NCBI GenBank assembly: GCA_051418015.1
Contig: JBPRGF010000023.1
Span: 192,001-256,000 of the forward strand
Direction: 5' to 3'
DNA from: Candidatus Nitrospinota bacterium M3_3B_026
GTDB taxonomy: Bacteria > Nitrospinota_A > UBA7883 > JBPRGF01
DNA length: 64,000 bases
Every line of letters begins with the position of its first letter. The stretch's first letter is position 1. A program made the position numbers. This document shows positions 15,001-24,000 of the stretch, in pieces.

Positions 15001-18000
15001 CCCTTGAGATATTCGAGCCGCCACGCTTTTTCGAGGCTTTTTTGAGGGGGCGGAGATTCCAGGAAGCGCCGGACATCACCGCCCGGATATGCGGCATATG
15101 CCCCATCGCCTACCAGATGAGCGCCGTCCACGCCATGGAGGACGCGCTGGGGGTCGCCGTCGACGGGGCCACGAGGGATCTTCGCAGGCTGATCTACTGC
15201 GGCGAGTGGATAGAAAGCCACGCCCTCCACGTCTACATGCTCCATGCCCCCGATTTCCTCGGGTACGAAAGCGCCATCCACATGGCAAAAGACCACCCGG
15301 AAATAGTAAAACGCGGTCTTTTTATAAAGAAGGCGGGCAACGCCATCGTCTCGCTTCTTGGCGGCAGGGAGGTTCACCCCATAAACGTCCGGGTGGGGGG
15401 TTTTTACAGGTTGCCGCGAGCTGGCGAGCTTTCCGGCCTGGAGGAGACTCTCAAAAGAGCCAGGGACGAGGCCGTGGAAACCGTGAAATGGGCCGCCGCC
15501 CTCCCCTTCCCCGAGTTTGAGAGGGATTATGTCTTCGTGGCGTTGTCTCATGAAAGAGAGTATCCCTTCAACGAGGGAAGAATCACCTCCACCGGCGGGC
15601 TCGACATCCCTGTCAGCGACTACGAAAAACATTTCGAGGAGGAGCACGCCGCCCATTCCACGGCCCTGCGCTCGAAGATAAAGGGAGGCGGCGCGTACAT
15701 GACCGGGCCGATGGCGCGGTATAGCATCAACTTCGGGAAGCTGCGGCCGATAGCGGTGGAAACGGCGCGGGCGGCGGGCCTTGCGCCGTACATCACGAAC
15801 CCGTACAAGAGCATAGCCGTCCGCGCCGTGGAGATTCTCCACGCCATAGACGAGGCGCTGCGGATCATCGGGGACGGAAAGCTTCCCGAAAAGCCGTTCG
15901 TGGAGGCGGAGCCCTCCGAGTCCACGGGATACGGCGCGACGGAGGCGCCGCGGGGGCTTCTCTACCACAGGTACACGCTTGACGAGAGCGGGCTGATAAC
16001 GAGCGCCAGGATCGTCCCCCCCACGTCGCAGAACCAGCGGATAATCGAGGAGGACCTTTTCAAGGCCGCCTCCGAAAACCTCCGCCTGCCCGACGATGAG
16101 CTTACGTTACGGCTGGAACAGACGATAAGGAACTATGACCCGTGCATATCCTGCTCCACGCATTTTCTGAAGCTGAAAATAGAACATGAACGGTAAGGTC
16201 CTCATAGGCGTCGGGTCCGAGGATCGCGGCGACGACGCCGCAGGGCTCAGGATCGTCCGCGCCCTCAGGGACATGGTTCCCAGGAGCGTCGAGGTGGTGG
16301 AGGCGCCGGGCGAGGGAGCGCGTATAATGGAGGCTTGGCAGGGTTTTCATTTCACGCGGGTGTTCGACGCCGTCTCCTCCGGCGCGCCGCCGGGGACGAT
16401 CGTAAAGCTCGACCCGCGTAAGGACCCCTTTCCCGCGGCCTTTTTTCGCAGTTCCTCCCACACTTTCGGCCTGGCGGAGGCGGTGGAGCTTGCGCGGTCG
16501 CTCGGCGCTCTTCCGCCGTCTCTCATGATCTACGGGGTGGAGGGGAAGGACTACGGGCTGGGGCGGGGGCTCTCGGCGGAGGTGTCCGCCGCCGTGGATG
16601 AGATCGTGGAGATGGTCAAAAAGGAGATGCTCTCTTCGCCATCCATGGGAGATGATGGCTAGGACTTGGAGAACCGCTCCGACACGGAGTCGAAGCCTAT
16701 GACCACCTTGTCGCGGCTTTCGAGGGTGACCGTCCCTTCGAAAGAGTGGCCGAACGTCTCGTCCCCGTCCCTGGTGTCCTTTATGGCCACTTTTATCGCA
16801 TGCGAGCCGAGGGGCAGGATGAACTTCTCGTAGACATACGTGGCGCTGTCCTGCCTTATGCCCGATGGGACGATCTGCTTGTCCAGGGCGGTTTCGCCGT
16901 CGATCCACACCTTGAGCCGCAGGGGGACGCGTTCCCGGCTGCCGCAAACCCTGTCCGCCCGCTGCATGTGCGGGCGTCTCAGCTTGGCCTCCTTTTTGAA
17001 CTCTTCGAGCTCCTCCTCGTCGCACAGGCTCCTGCGCTCGGTCACTCTCTTGAACGATATGATGACCCCCCCCACGTCGTCGCTGTAATAGCTGTAGGAC
17101 GGCGAGTCGGAAAGAAAATACACCAGCGGCGCGGGGGACAAAAGCAGGATCACGGCCCAGACCGTCAGTCTATCCTTCATTTCAGCGCGCCCTCCATGTC
17201 GTTGGCGGCGGTCTTTCCGCCGGATGGTTTTCTGACGATCTCCAGGAACTTCTTTATGTCCGCCACCACTTCCTCGTCCTCAAACCTCGACACCAGCATG
17301 ACTTTTATCCGCTCCCCCGCGCTCTCGTCCACTCCGGTGATGTTCGCCGGGTCCGTCGCCTCCTCGATCCGCTCGTTGCCTTCCCTGTAATGGCAGTCCA
17401 GCGGCCTGCAGCCCACGACCACGACCCCCTTCGCGCCGTCCTTGAACGCCGCTCCCACAAGGTCCGGCTCCAGGACGCCGGCGCAGGGGATGACCATCAC
17501 GGCCGCCGCGGGCTCGCCGGCAAGGCTTCTCTCGTCGTCCGACAGGACGTTCGAGAGGGTCATGCTCCGCTCGCACATGAAGCAGAGGATGACCGGCTTC
17601 TCCCCCTCCGCGGGCGCCATAAGGGACTTTATGTCCTCCAGCATCGAATCCCGCGTCATCTCCCCCATGGATATCCCGGACGTGGGGCACGCCGTCACGC
17701 AGAACCCGCATCCCTCGCACCGCGCCGGGAATATTTCCACCTGTGTGTCGTATGGTCTTCCGTCCGTTCTGGGAGTTATGCTCACCGCCTCGAAAGGGCA
17801 GACCGGCTGGCAGAGGTTGCATCCTTTGCATTTTTCAAGGTCTACCAGCGCGAACTGTTTTCGGGCTTTTTTTTTTGCCGCCGCCTTTCGCTTCTCACGC
17901 TCCAGCGCCGGCGCGGGGATGAGCCATGGCAGGGCCGTGAAAAGCGCGAGGGCCGCGGAGCCGGCGATCCACATCGCGCCGGGGGCGACCCTGAAGGCGT

Positions 18001-21000: not shown

Positions 21001-24000
21001 GCGAAAAAGACCACGCAACCCACGATGGCGCCCACGGCGAAGAGTATCACGCCGAGGTAGTACCAATGGTCGGCCTTCAAGGGGATGTACGAGGTGAACA
21101 TCACGTCCGCCTTGCCGAGCAGTATCTCCACCGCCGCTATTGCGGCTCCGCCCAGCATCAGCAGATACGCCAGCCACCCGGCCCATGGCGCGGCCAGCCT
21201 GGTGTTCAGCAACACCGCGGACGCGAAGTAGAGCACAGCTATCTCGAAGAAGATGATCCACGCCACCAGCATGGCGATCCCGTGCAGGGTCAGCAGCCGG
21301 TAGAACCACTCGTCATTGAGTATGTGCACGGCCTGCCACCTGGTGAGGACCATGAACAGCCCGATTATCCCCCCCACGAGGAGGAACACGATCGAAGTCA
21401 CCGCGTTGACCTGTATCAGGGTCTGCGCGGGAAGGTGTATCTTGAAACCGGTTGTCGGACAGGTTCTGAACCGTCCTTCTTGCTCCGCCATAAGCCCCCC
21501 CTACCTATTCAACGTATATCTTGCCGAACATCAGGTGATGCCCGATGCCGCAGAACTCGTTGCAGATTATGGTGTACTCCCCGGCTTTCGTCGGCGTGAT
21601 GGTCAGCACCGAGTCCCACCCGGGGACGGCCTGGAAGTTCATGTTCAAAGGATAGATCGAAAAACCGTGGTTCACGTCCACGGAGGACAGATGCAGCCTG
21701 TAGGTCTGGCCCGCCTTGAGCTTCAGGATGGGGTCCCACGACCACTGGGCGGCTCTCATGAAGGCGTCGCTGTTGGGAGGAGGCTCCACGACCGGGATTC
21801 CTTCCTCCTCGCCCACCTTGTACTTCTCTATGAACTTATCGGTCAGGTTGTAGAAATCGTCGGTGGTGAGCTTGTAGTACTCCTGCGGCGGGTTCTGCTC
21901 CCCGATTATATGCCAGGCCGGCATAATAAGTGTTATCAATATGCACCATATCAGCGCGATGGTGATCCATATCTTCTCCTCCGCATGGAGAGGACTGCGC
22001 CACCAGTGCCGCGCGGGCGAATGAATGCTCATGTCTTCCCCCCTTATTTAGTTTTCACCCTTTGACCAAAGGAGACGTGGCGACGCTGCCCAACTCCACA
22101 AGTCCCCAGACGGTGTACAACAGCAGGAAAATCGCCGCCCCGAGGAAAAACAGCAGATACACGTCATCGAAAAACACCTGCCAGAAAGATACCGGCTCCT
22201 CTTCCCGCGCCTCTTCTTGTTCCATATGACTTCCCCCCTTTAATCTAAGGTTCGCCAAAGATGAGGATCACGCCTGTAGCGCCGGCTCCGTCGCCGGGTA
22301 CCGCGCCGCGCGCCGCGATCACGCTCAAACCGGCGCTCATGCGCCACGCTCTTACCGCGTTTTTATATCGGCAACCATCGGTAAAAGCTATGATAAAAGT
22401 CATAAACAACAGACGCATTTCATTACCATCCGCGACGCTCTGGCTATATGCCTGCGGCGCCCCGTAAGCGCCGGGACGCTCTGGCGAACACCCTGGAAAA
22501 CCGTCGGCGCCAAGGAAAGCAAAACGCTTCGCCCGAAGAAAATAATTTCGCGCGGAGGGCGCAATTTTTTTCCAGGCCACCGCGGAATCTTCAGCAACCG
22601 CCGAGAATCCAAAAAGTTACATCATGAAAAATTCCGCAAGATACTTTTCAAATGTATGACTTTAATCATATCGTCCGGCCGGAGTCCCGTTTATAAACGG
22701 TATTAAGCAGCGAATAAGACTTTTTTTTGGGGGGGACACATGAAAAGATATTTCTTTCTGTTCGCGCTGAGTCTTGCGTTAATCACCACGTTTTACACGC
22801 CACAAGCCCTGGCGGAGCCCGAAGCGCCACCGTTGAACCAGGATGAATGGCACATCGCCAAGAGCATCTACTTCAACAGGTGCGCCGGCTGCCACGGCAC
22901 CCTGAGGAAAGGCGCCACGGGGCCCAACCTCCTTCCGGAGAAGACCCTCGAATTCGGCACGGAGACCATCAGGAGCTTCATTATGGAGGGGACCGAGGGG
23001 GGCATGCCGGCCTTCGGCAGGGGCGGAATCCTGACGCCGGAGGAGGTCGACATCATGGCCAGGTTCGTCCAGCATGACCCCGTGGCCCCGCCGGAGATGT
23101 CGCTGGCGGACATGATGGAAAGCTGGAACCTTGTCGTGCCGCCGAACAAGAGGCCGAAAAAGCCGGCCCACAACAGGAACTGGCAGAACTTCTTCGGCGT
23201 GGTCCTGCGCGACGCTGGCCAGGTGGCCATCATCGACGGCGACACCAAGGAGAAGGTATCCACCGTCAACACAGGCTTCGCGGTGCACATCCTGCGCGCC
23301 TCGGCGTCGGGCCGGTATATCTTCTCAATCGGCCGCGACGGCAAGGCGACCATGATCGACACCTGGATGAAAAAGCCGTCCATCGTGGCCGAGGTCAAGA
23401 CCTGCTCCGAGGCCCGCTCCATCGACACCAGCAAATACGAAGGCTACGAGGACAAGTACGCCGTGGTGGGCTGCTACTGGCCGCCGCACTTCGTCGTCCT
23501 GAACGGCGCCACGCTGGAGCCGATGAAAATCGTCAGCACCAGAAGCTACACCTACGACTCGTATGAGTACCATCCCGAGCCCCGCGTGGCGGCGATCGTC
23601 TCCTCGCACTACAGCCCGGAGTGGGTCCTGAACGTCAAGGAGACGGGCTACGTCTGGCTGGTCGATTACTCCGATATCGAGAACATGAAGATCACCCAGA
23701 TCGAGTCTGAGCGCTTCCTTCACGACGGGGGCTGGGACGCCAAGCACCGCTACTTCATGGCGGCGGCGAACATGCGCGACACCATGGTTGTCATAGACAC
23801 CAAGACCAGGAAGAAGGTGGCGCAGTTCAAGGTCGGCACCAAGCCGCACCCGGGCCGCGGCGGAAACTGGGTCGACCCGAAATACGGCCCCGTCTCGGGC
23901 ACGGTGCACCTCGGCGAGGGACTGCTCTCGGTGTGGGGGTCCGACCCTGAGGGTCACCCGGAACACGCCTGGAAGGTCGTGAGAAGCATCGAGCTTCCCG

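Follow-up and report, generated by a model that had tools for sequence, protein, structure and literature searches.

The window analysed here, a stretch of 64,000 nucleotides from Candidatus Nitrospinota bacterium M3_3B_026, carries at positions 16659-22032 of its minus strand an operon whose order, cox2-cox1-(42-aa ORF)-sco1-559-aa gene-173-aa gene, agrees with the survey's finding. The first two genes, cox2 (21505..22032, minus strand; Pfam COX2, E 5.3e-7) and cox1 (19971..21491, minus strand; Pfam COX1, E 4.6e-63), encode subunits II and I of a haem-copper enzyme that is probably of the eNOR type. They are followed by a 42-aa single-helix subunit (19812..19940, minus strand) that is weakly CoxIIa-like (Pfam CoxIIa, E 0.0035; 17.6 bits, under the cut-off of 20.7) and is kept in place at other loci from the same phylum, Gemmatimonadota and metagenomes. 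The next gene, sco1 (18906..19721, minus strand; Pfam SCO1-SenC, E 7e-13), codes for a Sco1/SenC copper chaperone in which translation and hydropathy reveal a signal peptide, the motif CHGPC and a membrane helix at the C-terminus. The operon ends with a 559-aa cytochrome b fusion gene (17177..18856, minus strand) and the gene of a 173-aa protein, p173 (16659..17180, minus strand), whose start codon and the stop codon of the fusion gene overlap (ATGA). Divergent from the operon lies nirS, encoding a cd1 nitrite reductase (22740..24344, plus strand; Pfam Cytochrom_D1, E 6.6e-131), which opens a nirS-nirS-nirJ-nirF-like cluster reaching 28464. The hydrogenase cluster reported upstream was also recovered (11657-16662); it is group-3b-like and convergent, its genes ending 4 bases into the p173 stop.

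The haem-copper enzyme had been labelled a ba3-type oxidase, a label that does not hold, as Gln, a published eNOR marker, stands where the cross-link Tyr would be. Subunit I contains the HH and PGHFH ligand motifs, and in an alignment to Thermus ba3 chains its GHSSQQ falls on the ba3 GHPIVY, with Gln in place of Tyr237; Gln at this site is the discriminator given for eNOR in PMC8756737. The motif GHxxQQ[IV]N occurs in all 17 subunit I orthologues examined from the phylum, in 49 metagenome loci and in 69 of the 70 motif matches within 80 kept Gemmatimonadota loci, the lone exception being a second, 33% identical haem-copper oxidase (HCO) with GHPLVY. Every one of the closely related neighbouring HCOs has Gln. 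Since the Tyr needed for O2 reduction is missing, the enzyme is unlikely to be an O2 reductase. Subunit II, read in translation, consists of one membrane helix and a cupredoxin domain; the CuA motif of the latter, CNEFCGIGHHLM, is kept in 30/30 aligned orthologues from two phyla, with C157, E159, C161, H165 and M168 invariant. The eNOR of R. marinus, assayed with TMPD/ascorbate, reduces NO and not O2, and Dataset S8 of the same study scores UBA7883 and UBA9942 Nitrospinota genomes as ENOR = 1 (Murali et al. 2024, PMC11214002). Taken together, the Gln motif, the CuA site and this published genome table indicate that the window enzyme is probably an eNOR-type NO reductase. It shares with the eNOR family of PMC11214002 the B-family relation, a CuA-bearing subunit II, the replacement of the cross-link Tyr by Gln and the occurrence in UBA7883 and UBA9942 Nitrospinota. 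The description in PMC11214002, however, is of two subunits and does not mention a cytochrome b partner, whereas the window operon has one; as the R. marinus enzyme is described there without such a subunit, this partner may not be general to eNOR.

The domains assigned to the 559-aa protein were confirmed by Pfam: Cytochrome_B at residues 47-229 (E 2.8e-24), Fer4 families at approximately 338-393 and FlpD at 423-542, the last match (E 2.4e-16) spanning profile positions 1-120 of 123. On the DNA, all on the minus strand, a cytochrome b domain of residues 1-320 (17897..18856), resting on Pfam, invariant columns, hydropathy and an AF2 model, precedes two predicted cytoplasmic [4Fe-4S] motifs (17666..17851), supported by Fer4 families and Cys conservation, and an MvhD/FlpD domain (17231..17590). 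As in the survey, the hydrophobic segments fall in the N-terminal part (62-80, 113-131, 140-164, 202-220, 240-258 and 295-313), and the FlpD domain contains a weaker one (444-471). Within the six helices of the cytochrome b domain, the haem ligands are H110/H124 and H211/H225, 13 residues separating the two His of a pair, and the ef loop carries a Qo-like motif, I-D275-W-F, which corresponds to the PEWY-type motif and reads xDWF across the fusion family, position 1 being variable. Over 285-330 columns the AF2 model of this domain aligns with full-length cytochrome b from bc1/bcc complexes, and the fold is complete, helices E and F included. The [4Fe-4S] ligand motifs comprise C343, C346, C349 and C353, and C380, C383, C386 and C390; the MvhD/FlpD domain has four conserved Cys (C428, C458, C483 and C488). 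The four haem His, these Cys (eight plus four) and D275 are each invariant or nearly so in 29 sequences. The Fe-S region resembles the C-terminal ferredoxin domain of HdrA, and among solved structures the MvhD chains 9sw2_D (E 2.3e-9) and 5odc_D (E 6.2e-9) match the MvhD/FlpD domain. The predicted cytoplasmic placing of the Fe-S/MvhD module fits both the six helices and the positive-inside rule. Retention of an xDWF Qo-like motif with an invariant Asp makes quinol chemistry more likely than the survey had feared. The paralogue noted earlier was also found (598 aa, contig C1, 34% identity); it has the same domains and lies away from any HCO.

The p173 protein has an N-terminal membrane anchor followed by a predicted periplasmic helical hairpin and beta-sandwich (AF2 pLDDT 90.4). 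In alignments C53, H71 and C79 never vary, and M72 hardly does. It had been described as belonging to no family, which is true of Pfam and NCBIfam; yet longer fusions, among them the 695-aa P0038 (E 3e-26), end in a domain homologous to p173, and a profile search matched 1482 representative clusters. Family and structure comparisons yielded no redox-cofactor family and no informative fold match. By sequence, p173 is the C-terminal domain of these longer proteins, split off as a separate gene in the window lineage, and this homology, together with the start that overlaps the fusion gene's stop, argues that it is part of the same unit.

The survey's figure of only 109 matching proteins proved to be an artefact of a candidate-limited search. 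A pattern scan of species genomes revealed 320 fusion relatives, from which 80 were kept, all Gemmatimonadota-type records, and a second scan, of metagenomes, found at least 470. Within the phylum, fusion matches with a best E <= 1e-60 were again obtained in 26 of 33 genomes, and the reported conservation of gene order extends to 16 of 20 fetched loci, in which the set is complete and colinear; of the remaining four, three are truncated at contig ends and the other is paralogue-type. An eNOR is present in 23 of the 33 genomes, all of which have the fusion; seven have neither, and in the last three the fusion stands without eNOR (in G006 and G011 it lies at a contig edge, and in G022 it is of the paralogue type). 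When the same 301 Gemmatimonadota genomes were searched for both, the fusion was found in 69, an HCO match in 71, both in 67 and the fusion only in two. As a counter-point, four of these genomes carry divergent eNOR-like HCOs without the cytochrome b fusion, 44-49% identical as against at least 68% in the rest. Among the 80 kept of 320 Gemmatimonadota loci, cox2 accompanies the fusion in 76 and cox1 in 72; fusion and cox genes are divergent there, unlike the colinear order in Nitrospinota, and a Rrf2-family regulator occurs in 60, mostly between the two divergent operons. The metagenome loci inspected, 80 mostly short contigs of at least 470, have cox1 in 59 cases and sco1 in 68. Co-occurrence and adjacency in three independent data sets and two gene arrangements bear out the proposed functional tie between the cytochrome b fusion and the haem-copper enzyme. 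The parts are conserved and tightly co-inherited with eNOR, and the fusion plus p173 is a constant companion of this enzyme in several phyla. Two genomes (G005 and G008) have kept the cytochrome b and p173 and lost the Fe-S/MvhD arm, which is therefore not essential to the core function. The operon contains no conserved gene for a cytoplasmic partner.

The architecture of the fusion is not new: it was described as PDWF-FeS, a clade of Rieske-less cytochromes b to which no function was assigned, in Magnetospirillum magneticum and Turneriella parva, while Alicycliphilus has a flavin variant (Kao & Hunte 2014, Genome Biol Evol, PMC4122944). The window protein shares with this clade the cytochrome b including the Qo-motif region, the lack of a Rieske gene in the cluster, and Asp and Phe at motif positions 2 and 4, and differs from it at position 1, which is Ile here and Pro in the clade. 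In PMC4122944 the clade is described from two named examples, with mention of neither eNOR nor p173; what is new here is the linkage of the fusion and p173 to eNOR. Dataset S4 of Murali et al. 2024 (PMC11214002) has both Turneriella and Alicycliphilus among its eNOR reference organisms. A 2026 preprint (bioRxiv 10.64898/2026.01.22.701106) presents an eNOR operon of Ferrigenium straubiae with the sibling flavin variant and proposes a supercomplex. Like the window operon, it has genes for eNOR II, eNOR I, Sco1, a protein with no assigned function and a cytochrome b-[Fe-S] fusion; its arm is of the [Fe-S]-FAD-NADH kind ("quinol:NAD+ oxidoreductase"), and it has a second cytochrome b-[Fe-S] gene. 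As the window arm is MvhD and not [Fe-S]-FAD-NADH, a separate partner would be needed. The preprint also names a "scaffold protein", a possible counterpart of p173.

Among other known systems, the Rieske/cytochrome b complexes bc1 and b6f resemble the window protein in the fold over helices A-F, the four haem His and the Qo-type motif. Unlike them, the window cluster encodes no Rieske protein and no cytochrome c1/f (the genome's three Rieske genes lie elsewhere), and the window protein bears an extra Fe-S arm on the cytoplasmic side. Where a Rieske centre is missing, it is not obvious what would accept the first electron from a Qo site. The Cys that b6 carries at the haem-ci position is absent from the fusion alignment. 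QmoABC and HdrDE-type membrane-linked Hdr-like complexes connect the quinone pool to cytoplasmic redox chemistry and likewise have a dihaem cytochrome b in the membrane that is wired to an MvhD domain and [4Fe-4S] clusters in the cytoplasm. Their cytochrome b, however, is of another family (the genome's QmoC has no Cytochrome_B match) and HdrA-type flavoproteins belong to them, whereas the fusion is bc-type with no flavoprotein gene linked. SoxABCD is an archaeal quinol-oxidase supercomplex with a cytochrome b module. Such supercomplexes join this module to an HCO (PMC4122944), and in the window, too, a cytochrome b is encoded together with a haem-copper enzyme.

We see an even chance that the operon encodes an eNOR-type NO reductase with its own electron-input module, consisting of the Rieske-less cytochrome b and p173. 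The fusion and p173 probably supply eNOR with electrons. The eNOR unit would comprise the CuA-bearing subunit II, the Gln-type subunit I and the 42-aa helix, with Sco1 inserting copper. In the cytochrome b, two bis-His haems would span the membrane, with a Qo-like quinol site on the periplasmic face, while on the cytoplasmic side a soluble partner would exchange electrons with the pair of [4Fe-4S] clusters and the [2Fe-2S] domain of MvhD type. Electrons could come from (mena)quinol oxidised at the Qo-like site or from a reductant in the cytoplasm, in the latter case through the [2Fe-2S] and [4Fe-4S] clusters to haem bH and haem bL, and would leave to the CuA of eNOR, which would reduce NO made by the neighbouring NirS. 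We infer for this scheme physical contact between module and eNOR, the use of quinol and a direction of flow in the cytoplasmic arm. There we lean towards inward supply, from the cytoplasm to eNOR, by analogy with NAD(P)H-flavin-dihaem enzymes and because most carriers are presumed heterotrophs.

The same Qo-like site could instead bifurcate, a reading that we hold to be rather unlikely: quinol would pass one electron to CuA and eNOR and the other through bL, bH and the [4Fe-4S] clusters to MvhD, there to reduce cytoplasmic ferredoxin, or NAD(P)+ via a partner. This reading combines the survey's idea of a module "run backwards" with the supercomplex idea of the Ferrigenium preprint. It would account for the retained motif with its invariant D275 and for an entire cytochrome b, helices E and F included, but the second electron would have to be raised to the potentials of the Fe-S clusters and, in crossing the membrane, to overcome the membrane potential, and a Rieske-like first acceptor is missing. 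The module is, moreover, commonest in Gemmatimonadota (320 loci), which are mostly heterotrophs that do not evidently need reverse electron flow, and some Nitrospinota-type genomes have lost the Fe-S/MvhD arm. Two reports are in its favour: the proteins appear in the Ferrigenium proteome (bioRxiv 10.64898/2026.01.22.701106), and non-Nitrospinia Nitrospinota, which do not have a second NUO, may hold undescribed ferredoxin-reducing complexes (Kop 2024). Reverse flow to ferredoxin is conjecture.

The placing of the 559-aa gene and p173 directly after sco1 could also reflect a role in assembly or maintenance, resembling DsbD/CcdA or MsrQ in logic, in which the cytochrome b would move reducing power to the periplasm, where p173 and Sco1 would reduce or load copper or the CuA cysteines. 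The two invariant Cys, invariant His and near-invariant Met in the predicted periplasmic domain of p173, a protein matching no redox-cofactor family or informative fold, would suit such a role. For a chaperone system, nevertheless, three Fe-S clusters and an entire cytochrome b that retains a Qo-like motif are elaborate equipment, and ordinary CuA enzymes manage without any such device, which makes this role improbable. Slightly less credible again is a separate, merely co-regulated quinone-linked complex of Qmo-like type, in which an HdrA-type flavoprotein would dock on MvhD with no transfer to eNOR. The Fer4 plus MvhD region is indeed like the HdrA2 C-terminus (NCBIfam, E 5.2e-32, far below the cut-off), the genome's QmoB, in an aprBA-qmoABC-sat cluster, shares those domains, and one paralogue sits away from any HCO. 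Co-regulation alone, however, explains poorly the near-perfect co-inheritance with eNOR across two phyla and two gene arrangements, or the position of p173 and Sco1 between the two gene sets.

The link proposed in the survey, from the neighbouring [NiFe] hydrogenase through MvhD and cytochrome b to a ba3-type O2 reductase, draws on the 4-base convergent overlap with p173 and on solved structures whose entry titles place MvhD in Mvh hydrogenase-Hdr complexes, but the hydrogenase subunits are those of a 3b-type enzyme and include an NAD(P)-binding one, the HCO does not have the Tyr needed for O2 reduction, and hydrogenase genes adjoin the module in none of 20 own-phylum and one of 80 kept Gemmatimonadota loci, counts that bring this link close to refutation and leave it highly improbable. 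The other neighbour, nirS, which is in keeping with the NO-reductase reading, lies beside the operon also at L040, L041, L044 and L050 (4/20 own-phylum loci) and near the fusion in 12 of 80 metagenome loci, drawn from at least 470 relatives.

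The operon consists of six closely packed genes, all on the minus strand. Gene map and Pfam searches place in it cox2 (21505-22032), encoding subunit II of a haem-copper enzyme, cox1 (19971-21491), encoding subunit I, a 42-aa open reading frame (19812-19940), sco1 (18906-19721) and the gene of a 559-aa protein (17177-18856) that joins a cytochrome b to two [4Fe-4S] clusters and an MvhD/FlpD domain, hereafter the fusion. The last gene on the map (16659-17180) encodes a 173-aa protein, p173, and its start overlaps the stop of the 559-aa gene (ATGA). A hydrogenase cluster lies upstream of the operon and convergent to it; its products as annotated by Pfam (Fer4_22; NAD_binding_1 with DHODB_Fe-S_bind; Oxidored_q6; NiFeSe_Hases; HycI) form a 3b-type subunit set. 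The end of the maturation protease gene hycI (plus strand) and the p173 stop codon (minus strand) overlap by 4 bases (16659-16662), which leaves no room for a terminator between the two convergent operons.

The haem-copper enzyme is probably of the eNOR type, a CuA-containing NO reductase, and not a ba3 oxygen reductase; this assignment rests on an active-site motif, on CuA and on a published table (Dataset S8 of Murali 2024, PMC11214002). The GH, HH and PGHFH motifs of subunit I align to the ligand motifs of ba3, and the early helix His is also there, which covers the three His ligands of the active-site metal and the two of the haem. In the same alignment FWGFGHSSQQIN falls onto FWWFGHPIVYFW of the Thermus thermophilus ba3 chains, with GHSSQQ standing against GHPIVY; as Gln occupies the Tyr column, the Tyr of the His-Tyr cross-link is replaced by Gln, and the window's subunit I thus lacks the cross-link residue of B-family (ba3) O2 reductases (GHPxVY). 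Subunit II carries the CuA motif CNEFCGIGHHLM plus an upstream His, invariant in 30 sequences. The combination of Gln in place of the cross-link Tyr with CuA is a marker of eNOR and runs against the survey's finding of a "ba3-type oxidase". The Gln-type motif is present in all 17 orthologues from the organism's own phylum, Nitrospinota_A (17/17 read GH[ST][ST]QQIN), in 69 of 70 Gemmatimonadota motif matches and in 49 metagenome loci. The single Gemmatimonadota exception is a second haem-copper enzyme, 33% identical, that reads GHPLVY, and the only other haem-copper-like motif match in the metagenome loci likewise comes from a second, 29%-identical enzyme (L211/L212; GHSFQY, with Tyr in the fifth position). 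The Gemmatimonadota exception, in locus L098, is a true B-type enzyme and served as a Tyr-type control. The second haem-copper enzymes at L098:1744-3366 and L211:4960-6441 retain Tyr (GHPLVY and GHSFQY, respectively), so that Gln-type and Tyr-type enzymes occur side by side.

This assignment agrees with published descriptions of the family. A conserved Gln at the cross-link site is reported to set eNOR apart from oxygen reductases and other NORs (PMC8756737), and Murali 2024 (PMC11214002) describes eNOR as a CuA-containing enzyme derived from the B family, of which the Rhodothermus marinus representative reduces NO, not O2. Dataset S8 of that work gives ENOR = 1 for the Nitrospinota classes UBA7883 and UBA9942. 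A haem A synthase gene elsewhere in the genome fits the haem-a content reported for eNOR. In Gemmatimonadota (L060-L139, e.g. L100:5841-7565) subunit I appears to carry the 42-aa subunit as a C-terminal fusion, in open reading frames of ~574-600 aa.

For the 559-aa protein, the domains named in the survey's finding were borne out by Pfam: Cytochrome_B at residues 47-229 (E 2.8e-24), two Fer4 motifs at ~338-393 and FlpD at residues 423-542 (E 2.4e-16; 60.3 bits against a cut-off of 22.3). Hydropathy indicates six helices, with Lys/Arg-rich stretches at the N-terminus, in the BC and DE loops and in the segment after helix F, and this canonical cytochrome b topology places the Fe-S/MvhD module in the cytoplasm, where it had previously been inferred to lie. 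Residues 1 to 285-330 of the AF2 model align in Foldseek to full-length bc1/bcc cytochrome b; the fusion therefore has helices E and F and the ef loop, beyond a four-helix b6 core. In an alignment of 29 family members the haem His pairs H110/H124 and H211/H225, with 13 residues between the members of each pair, and the [4Fe-4S] Cys residues (C343, C346, C349, C353 and C380, C383, C386, C390) are invariant or near-invariant, as are, within the MvhD domain, C428, C458 and C483 (invariant) and C488 (conserved in at least 90%). D275 of the x-D-W-F motif, at the position of the PEWY Qo motif, is also invariant; the fusion reads I-D275-W-F, the first position being Ile, not Pro. Residues 333-543 resemble the C-terminal ferredoxin and MvhD region of HdrA2, with an NCBIfam score (E 5.2e-32) that stays far under the cut-off, and also match solved MvhD and HdrA chains. 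Two further features were considered and rejected: a membrane helix within the MvhD domain, since the AF2 model (pLDDT 86.3) shows hydrophobic residues 444-471 as a buried strand of the MvhD fold, and a haem-ci site of the b6f type, the aligned position having no Cys.

No Rieske protein is found among the operon products, as already recognised in the survey; the genome's three Rieske matches lie on contigs C26 and C33 and ~189 kb away on C23, and two of them adjoin canonical cytochrome b genes. The operon thus has the cytochrome b fold itself without the Rieske subunit and the cytochrome c1/f partner of a bc1/b6f complex, and the MvhD/FlpD domain is not co-encoded with an MvhAG hydrogenase or HdrA, the operon having no HdrA. 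An xDWF Qo motif, 4Fe-4S and MvhD domains and a Rieske-less cluster, all present here, are what characterize the "PDWF-FeS" cytochrome b clade, defined by Kao & Hunte 2014 (PMC4122944) with a gene cluster devoid of a Rieske protein and with an Alicycliphilus denitrificans member bearing ferredoxin and flavin-reductase domains. The conclusion of that paper states that a whole cytochrome b can join other bioenergetic complexes. A 598-aa paralogue of the fusion (L009:10798-12594, on contig C1) is encoded between a Ser/Thr kinase gene and ccmH, distant from any haem-copper enzyme. Its C-terminus gave no BLASTP match to p173, lacks the C...HM...C motif and scored a probability of 6% in hhalign (E 0.0057, 49 columns).

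The description of p173 as a protein of no family stands as far as Pfam and NCBIfam are concerned, neither of which gave a match, and falls as regards homology. Over its full length p173 matches residues 521-692 in a fusion homologue of 695 aa (E 3e-26), and its profile matches 1482 representative clusters at E <= 1e-3 (319 at E <= 1e-30); the 150 representatives listed all resemble Gemmatimonadota or Nitrospinota types. Several fusion homologues of 640-720 aa bear a p173-like extension after one further membrane helix, so that p173 would consist of an N-terminal anchor and a periplasmic domain. Judged by these alignments, p173 belongs to the same unit as the cytochrome b fusion. Alignments and AF2 model (pLDDT 90.4) agree on an N-terminal anchor, a C...PxHM(R)...C motif and a beta-sandwich, the modelled chain running from a helix through a strand and a short helical hairpin into a seven-stranded sandwich. 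C53, H71, C79 and G107 do not vary, either among 30 sequences drawn from two phyla or among 76 diverse representatives, and M72 is conserved in at least 90% of the sequences in both alignments; this Cys/His/Met/Cys set is possibly a periplasmic metal or redox site. The motif C53...P69-x-H71-M72-R73...C79 (residues 53-79, window ~16944-17024) is kept across the 76 diverse members. The fold gave no functional lead beyond a generic beta-sandwich, either in Foldseek against the PDB (best E 5.7e-4, TM 0.36; HGSNAT luminal domain, PepT2 extracellular domain, CBM20/41) or in a wide VIA-align search, in which the best Z of 7.4 lies inside the tool's stated noise range. In the Protein Atlas p173 matched hypothetical-protein clusters only, with Pseudomonadota as the commonest taxon; in one cluster of 244 aa, 33% of the members have FlpD.

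In at least two phyla, and on many metagenome contigs, a Rieske-less cytochrome b and p173 are co-inherited with one large eNOR clade. Within the phylum, 26 of 33 genomes have a fusion match (best E <= 1e-60), the same number as in the survey, and all 23 genomes with eNOR are among these 26. The three genomes with a fusion only are G011, where the contig starts at the 42-aa gene, G006, where the match lies at a contig start, and G022, whose fusion is of the paralogue type (29% identical) with no cox genes nearby; the seven genomes without a fusion also lack eNOR. The conserved gene order proposed earlier holds, being complete and colinear in 16 of the 20 loci retrieved, with three others cut by contig ends and one a paralogue locus. 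A pattern scan of Gemmatimonadota, covering the best 80 of 320 loci that encode a relative, found cox2 in 76 and cox1 in 72, the latter ~60% identical to the window's; here the cox genes occupy the other strand and are transcribed away from the genes of the fusion and p173. Although related genomes do not count as independent, the recurrence of the same pairing in distant phyla, with two different gene arrangements, speaks for a functional unit. An even sample of 301 Gemmatimonadota genomes contained the fusion in 69, a haem-copper enzyme match in 71 and both in 67. Only two had the fusion alone, one of these matches being partial, and in the four with the haem-copper enzyme alone that enzyme was 44-49% identical, against at least 68% for the rest. 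Metagenome contigs queried with the long forms of Nitrospirae and Deltaproteobacteria type, many of them short, gave sco1 in 68, p173 in 66, cox1 in 59, cox2 in 44 and nirS in 12 loci among the best 80 of at least 470 relatives.

The hydrogenase does not follow the unit. Beside the module, hydrogenase genes occur at 0 of 20 loci from the phylum and at 1 of 80 Gemmatimonadota loci (best 80 of 320), which, together with the 3b subunit set found here, leaves the proposed hydrogenase link without support. The cytoplasmic Fe-S/MvhD arm is frequent but dispensable. In G005 (L056) and G008 (L057) the cytochrome b has ~320 residues and ends right after helix F, with all four His residues, IDWF/IDWL and p173 kept, and the arm was not found anywhere in these two genomes; in G013 (L055) it is a separate gene of 245 aa. 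The core of the unit is therefore eNOR, Sco1, cytochrome b and p173. In G003 (L052) and G007 (L053) the fusion is duplicated in tandem, together with copies of p173, downstream of a single eNOR operon.

In our reading, the cytochrome b/p173 module serves eNOR as a dedicated electron input. Quinol oxidation at the periplasmic face is suggested by the Qo-like motif, which survives with its invariant Asp in the truncated forms too. Electrons would cross the membrane via the two haems of cytochrome b, and haem bH would be connected by the Fe-S arm to a cytoplasmic carrier. A complex prediction with cytochrome b residues 1-330, p173 and, as partner, the CuA subunit II returned a score of 0.00 and no verdict. 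As to direction, we lean towards an inward supply, from the cytoplasm to eNOR through the Fe-S arm. Known NAD(P)H-flavin-dihaem membrane enzymes pass electrons outward to an external acceptor, and the Alicycliphilus and Ferrigenium variants carry a flavin module of this kind. We count in the same sense that the majority of carriers belong to Gemmatimonadota, which are mostly heterotrophs.

It is rather unlikely that the arm instead exports electrons into the cytoplasm by a bifurcation coupled to NO reduction; this would require an uphill electron transfer that also works against the membrane potential. Retention of a Qo-type site speaks for export, as does a Ferrigenium preprint (bioRxiv 10.64898/2026.01.22.701106) that proposes NO reduction coupled to NAD+ reduction, and according to Kop 2024 non-Nitrospinia Nitrospinota may hold unknown ferredoxin-reducing complexes. 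Were the arm to export electrons, it would represent a new way from high-potential respiration to low-potential reductant. A specific form, to which we give a still smaller chance, is a Rieske-less, Q-cycle-like machine for NO-powered reverse electron transport. The place of the Rieske protein at the Qo-type site would be taken by the CuA of eNOR or by a hypothetical metal site formed by the conserved Cys/His/Met/Cys residues of p173; the first electron would be pulled by the large driving force of NO reduction and the second would pass via bL, bH, two [4Fe-4S] and the MvhD [2Fe-2S] to a cytoplasmic low-potential reductant, which, if true, would fill the "unknown ferredoxin-reducing complex" gap of non-Nitrospinia Nitrospinota. 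An assembly or thiol-reduction role of p173 with Sco1 is a further, less likely rival to the reading of p173 as part of the electron-input side.

The fusion (2014) and eNOR (2008-2024) are already in print, and so is, for a flavin variant, the idea that an eNOR operon holds cytochrome b-Fe-S proteins (2026 preprint). Dataset S4 of Murali 2024 (PMC11214002) counts Turneriella and Alicycliphilus among the eNOR reference organisms; the same work mentions a Magnetospirillum eNOR in its main text and describes the family as about as widespread as classical NORs. In the literature searched, which left most subscription journals outside, we found no use of "PDWF-FeS" after Kao & Hunte 2014 and no paper joining eNOR with MvhD/FlpD; a search for MvhD, cytochrome b and Nitrospina gave nothing on this fusion. 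What is new is that the co-inheritance of one eNOR clade with an MvhD-type PDWF-FeS cytochrome b is quantified across phyla, that p173 is recognised as a third component, fused in some cases, whose Cys/His/Met/Cys motif is conserved, and that the assignment shifts from O2 to NO and no longer involves the hydrogenase. The linkage bears on two open questions, the electron supply of eNOR and energy conservation by NO reduction; it offers a concrete, testable candidate for the electron-input route and assigns a biological context to a cytochrome b clade that has had none since 2014. Annotation as cytochrome c oxidase or "hydrogenase iron-sulfur subunit" hides NO-reduction capacity in Nitrospinota and Gemmatimonadota genomes.

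No promoter-like sites were found in 16000-22800 by a promoter/terminator scan, and the terminator-like sites there were uninformative. FNR/DNR-type boxes follow the motif TTGA-N6-TCAA; none lies between cox2 and nirS, and the window's only match, at 36212, does not exceed chance expectation. In Gemmatimonadota a Rrf2-family regulator is encoded in 60 of the 80 loci (e.g. L100:8405-8983), in most cases in the gap from which the eNOR operon and the cytochrome b/p173 operon diverge. The NO sensor NsrR is one of the Rrf2 regulators, and the protein encoded in these loci, which has a C-x7-C-x5-C motif, is a candidate NO- or Fe-S-responsive regulator of the eNOR unit. Divergent from the eNOR operon of the window lies a nirS-nirS-nirJ-nirF-like cluster (22740-28464; Pfam), a denitrification cluster with two cd1 NirS paralogues of 534 and 571 aa, the 571-aa copy having an extra C-terminal cytochrome c, as well as a NirJ-like radical SAM protein and a NirF-like propeller. 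Next to the cluster, at 28615-29718, a response-regulator/HD-GYP protein is encoded. Elsewhere in the genome, contig C24 (L145, 6721-15231) carries an aprB-aprA-qmoA-qmoB-qmoC-sat cluster, and the organism therefore has an APS-reductase/Qmo sulfur pathway; QmoB (738 aa) carries the genome's other Fer4+FlpD module.
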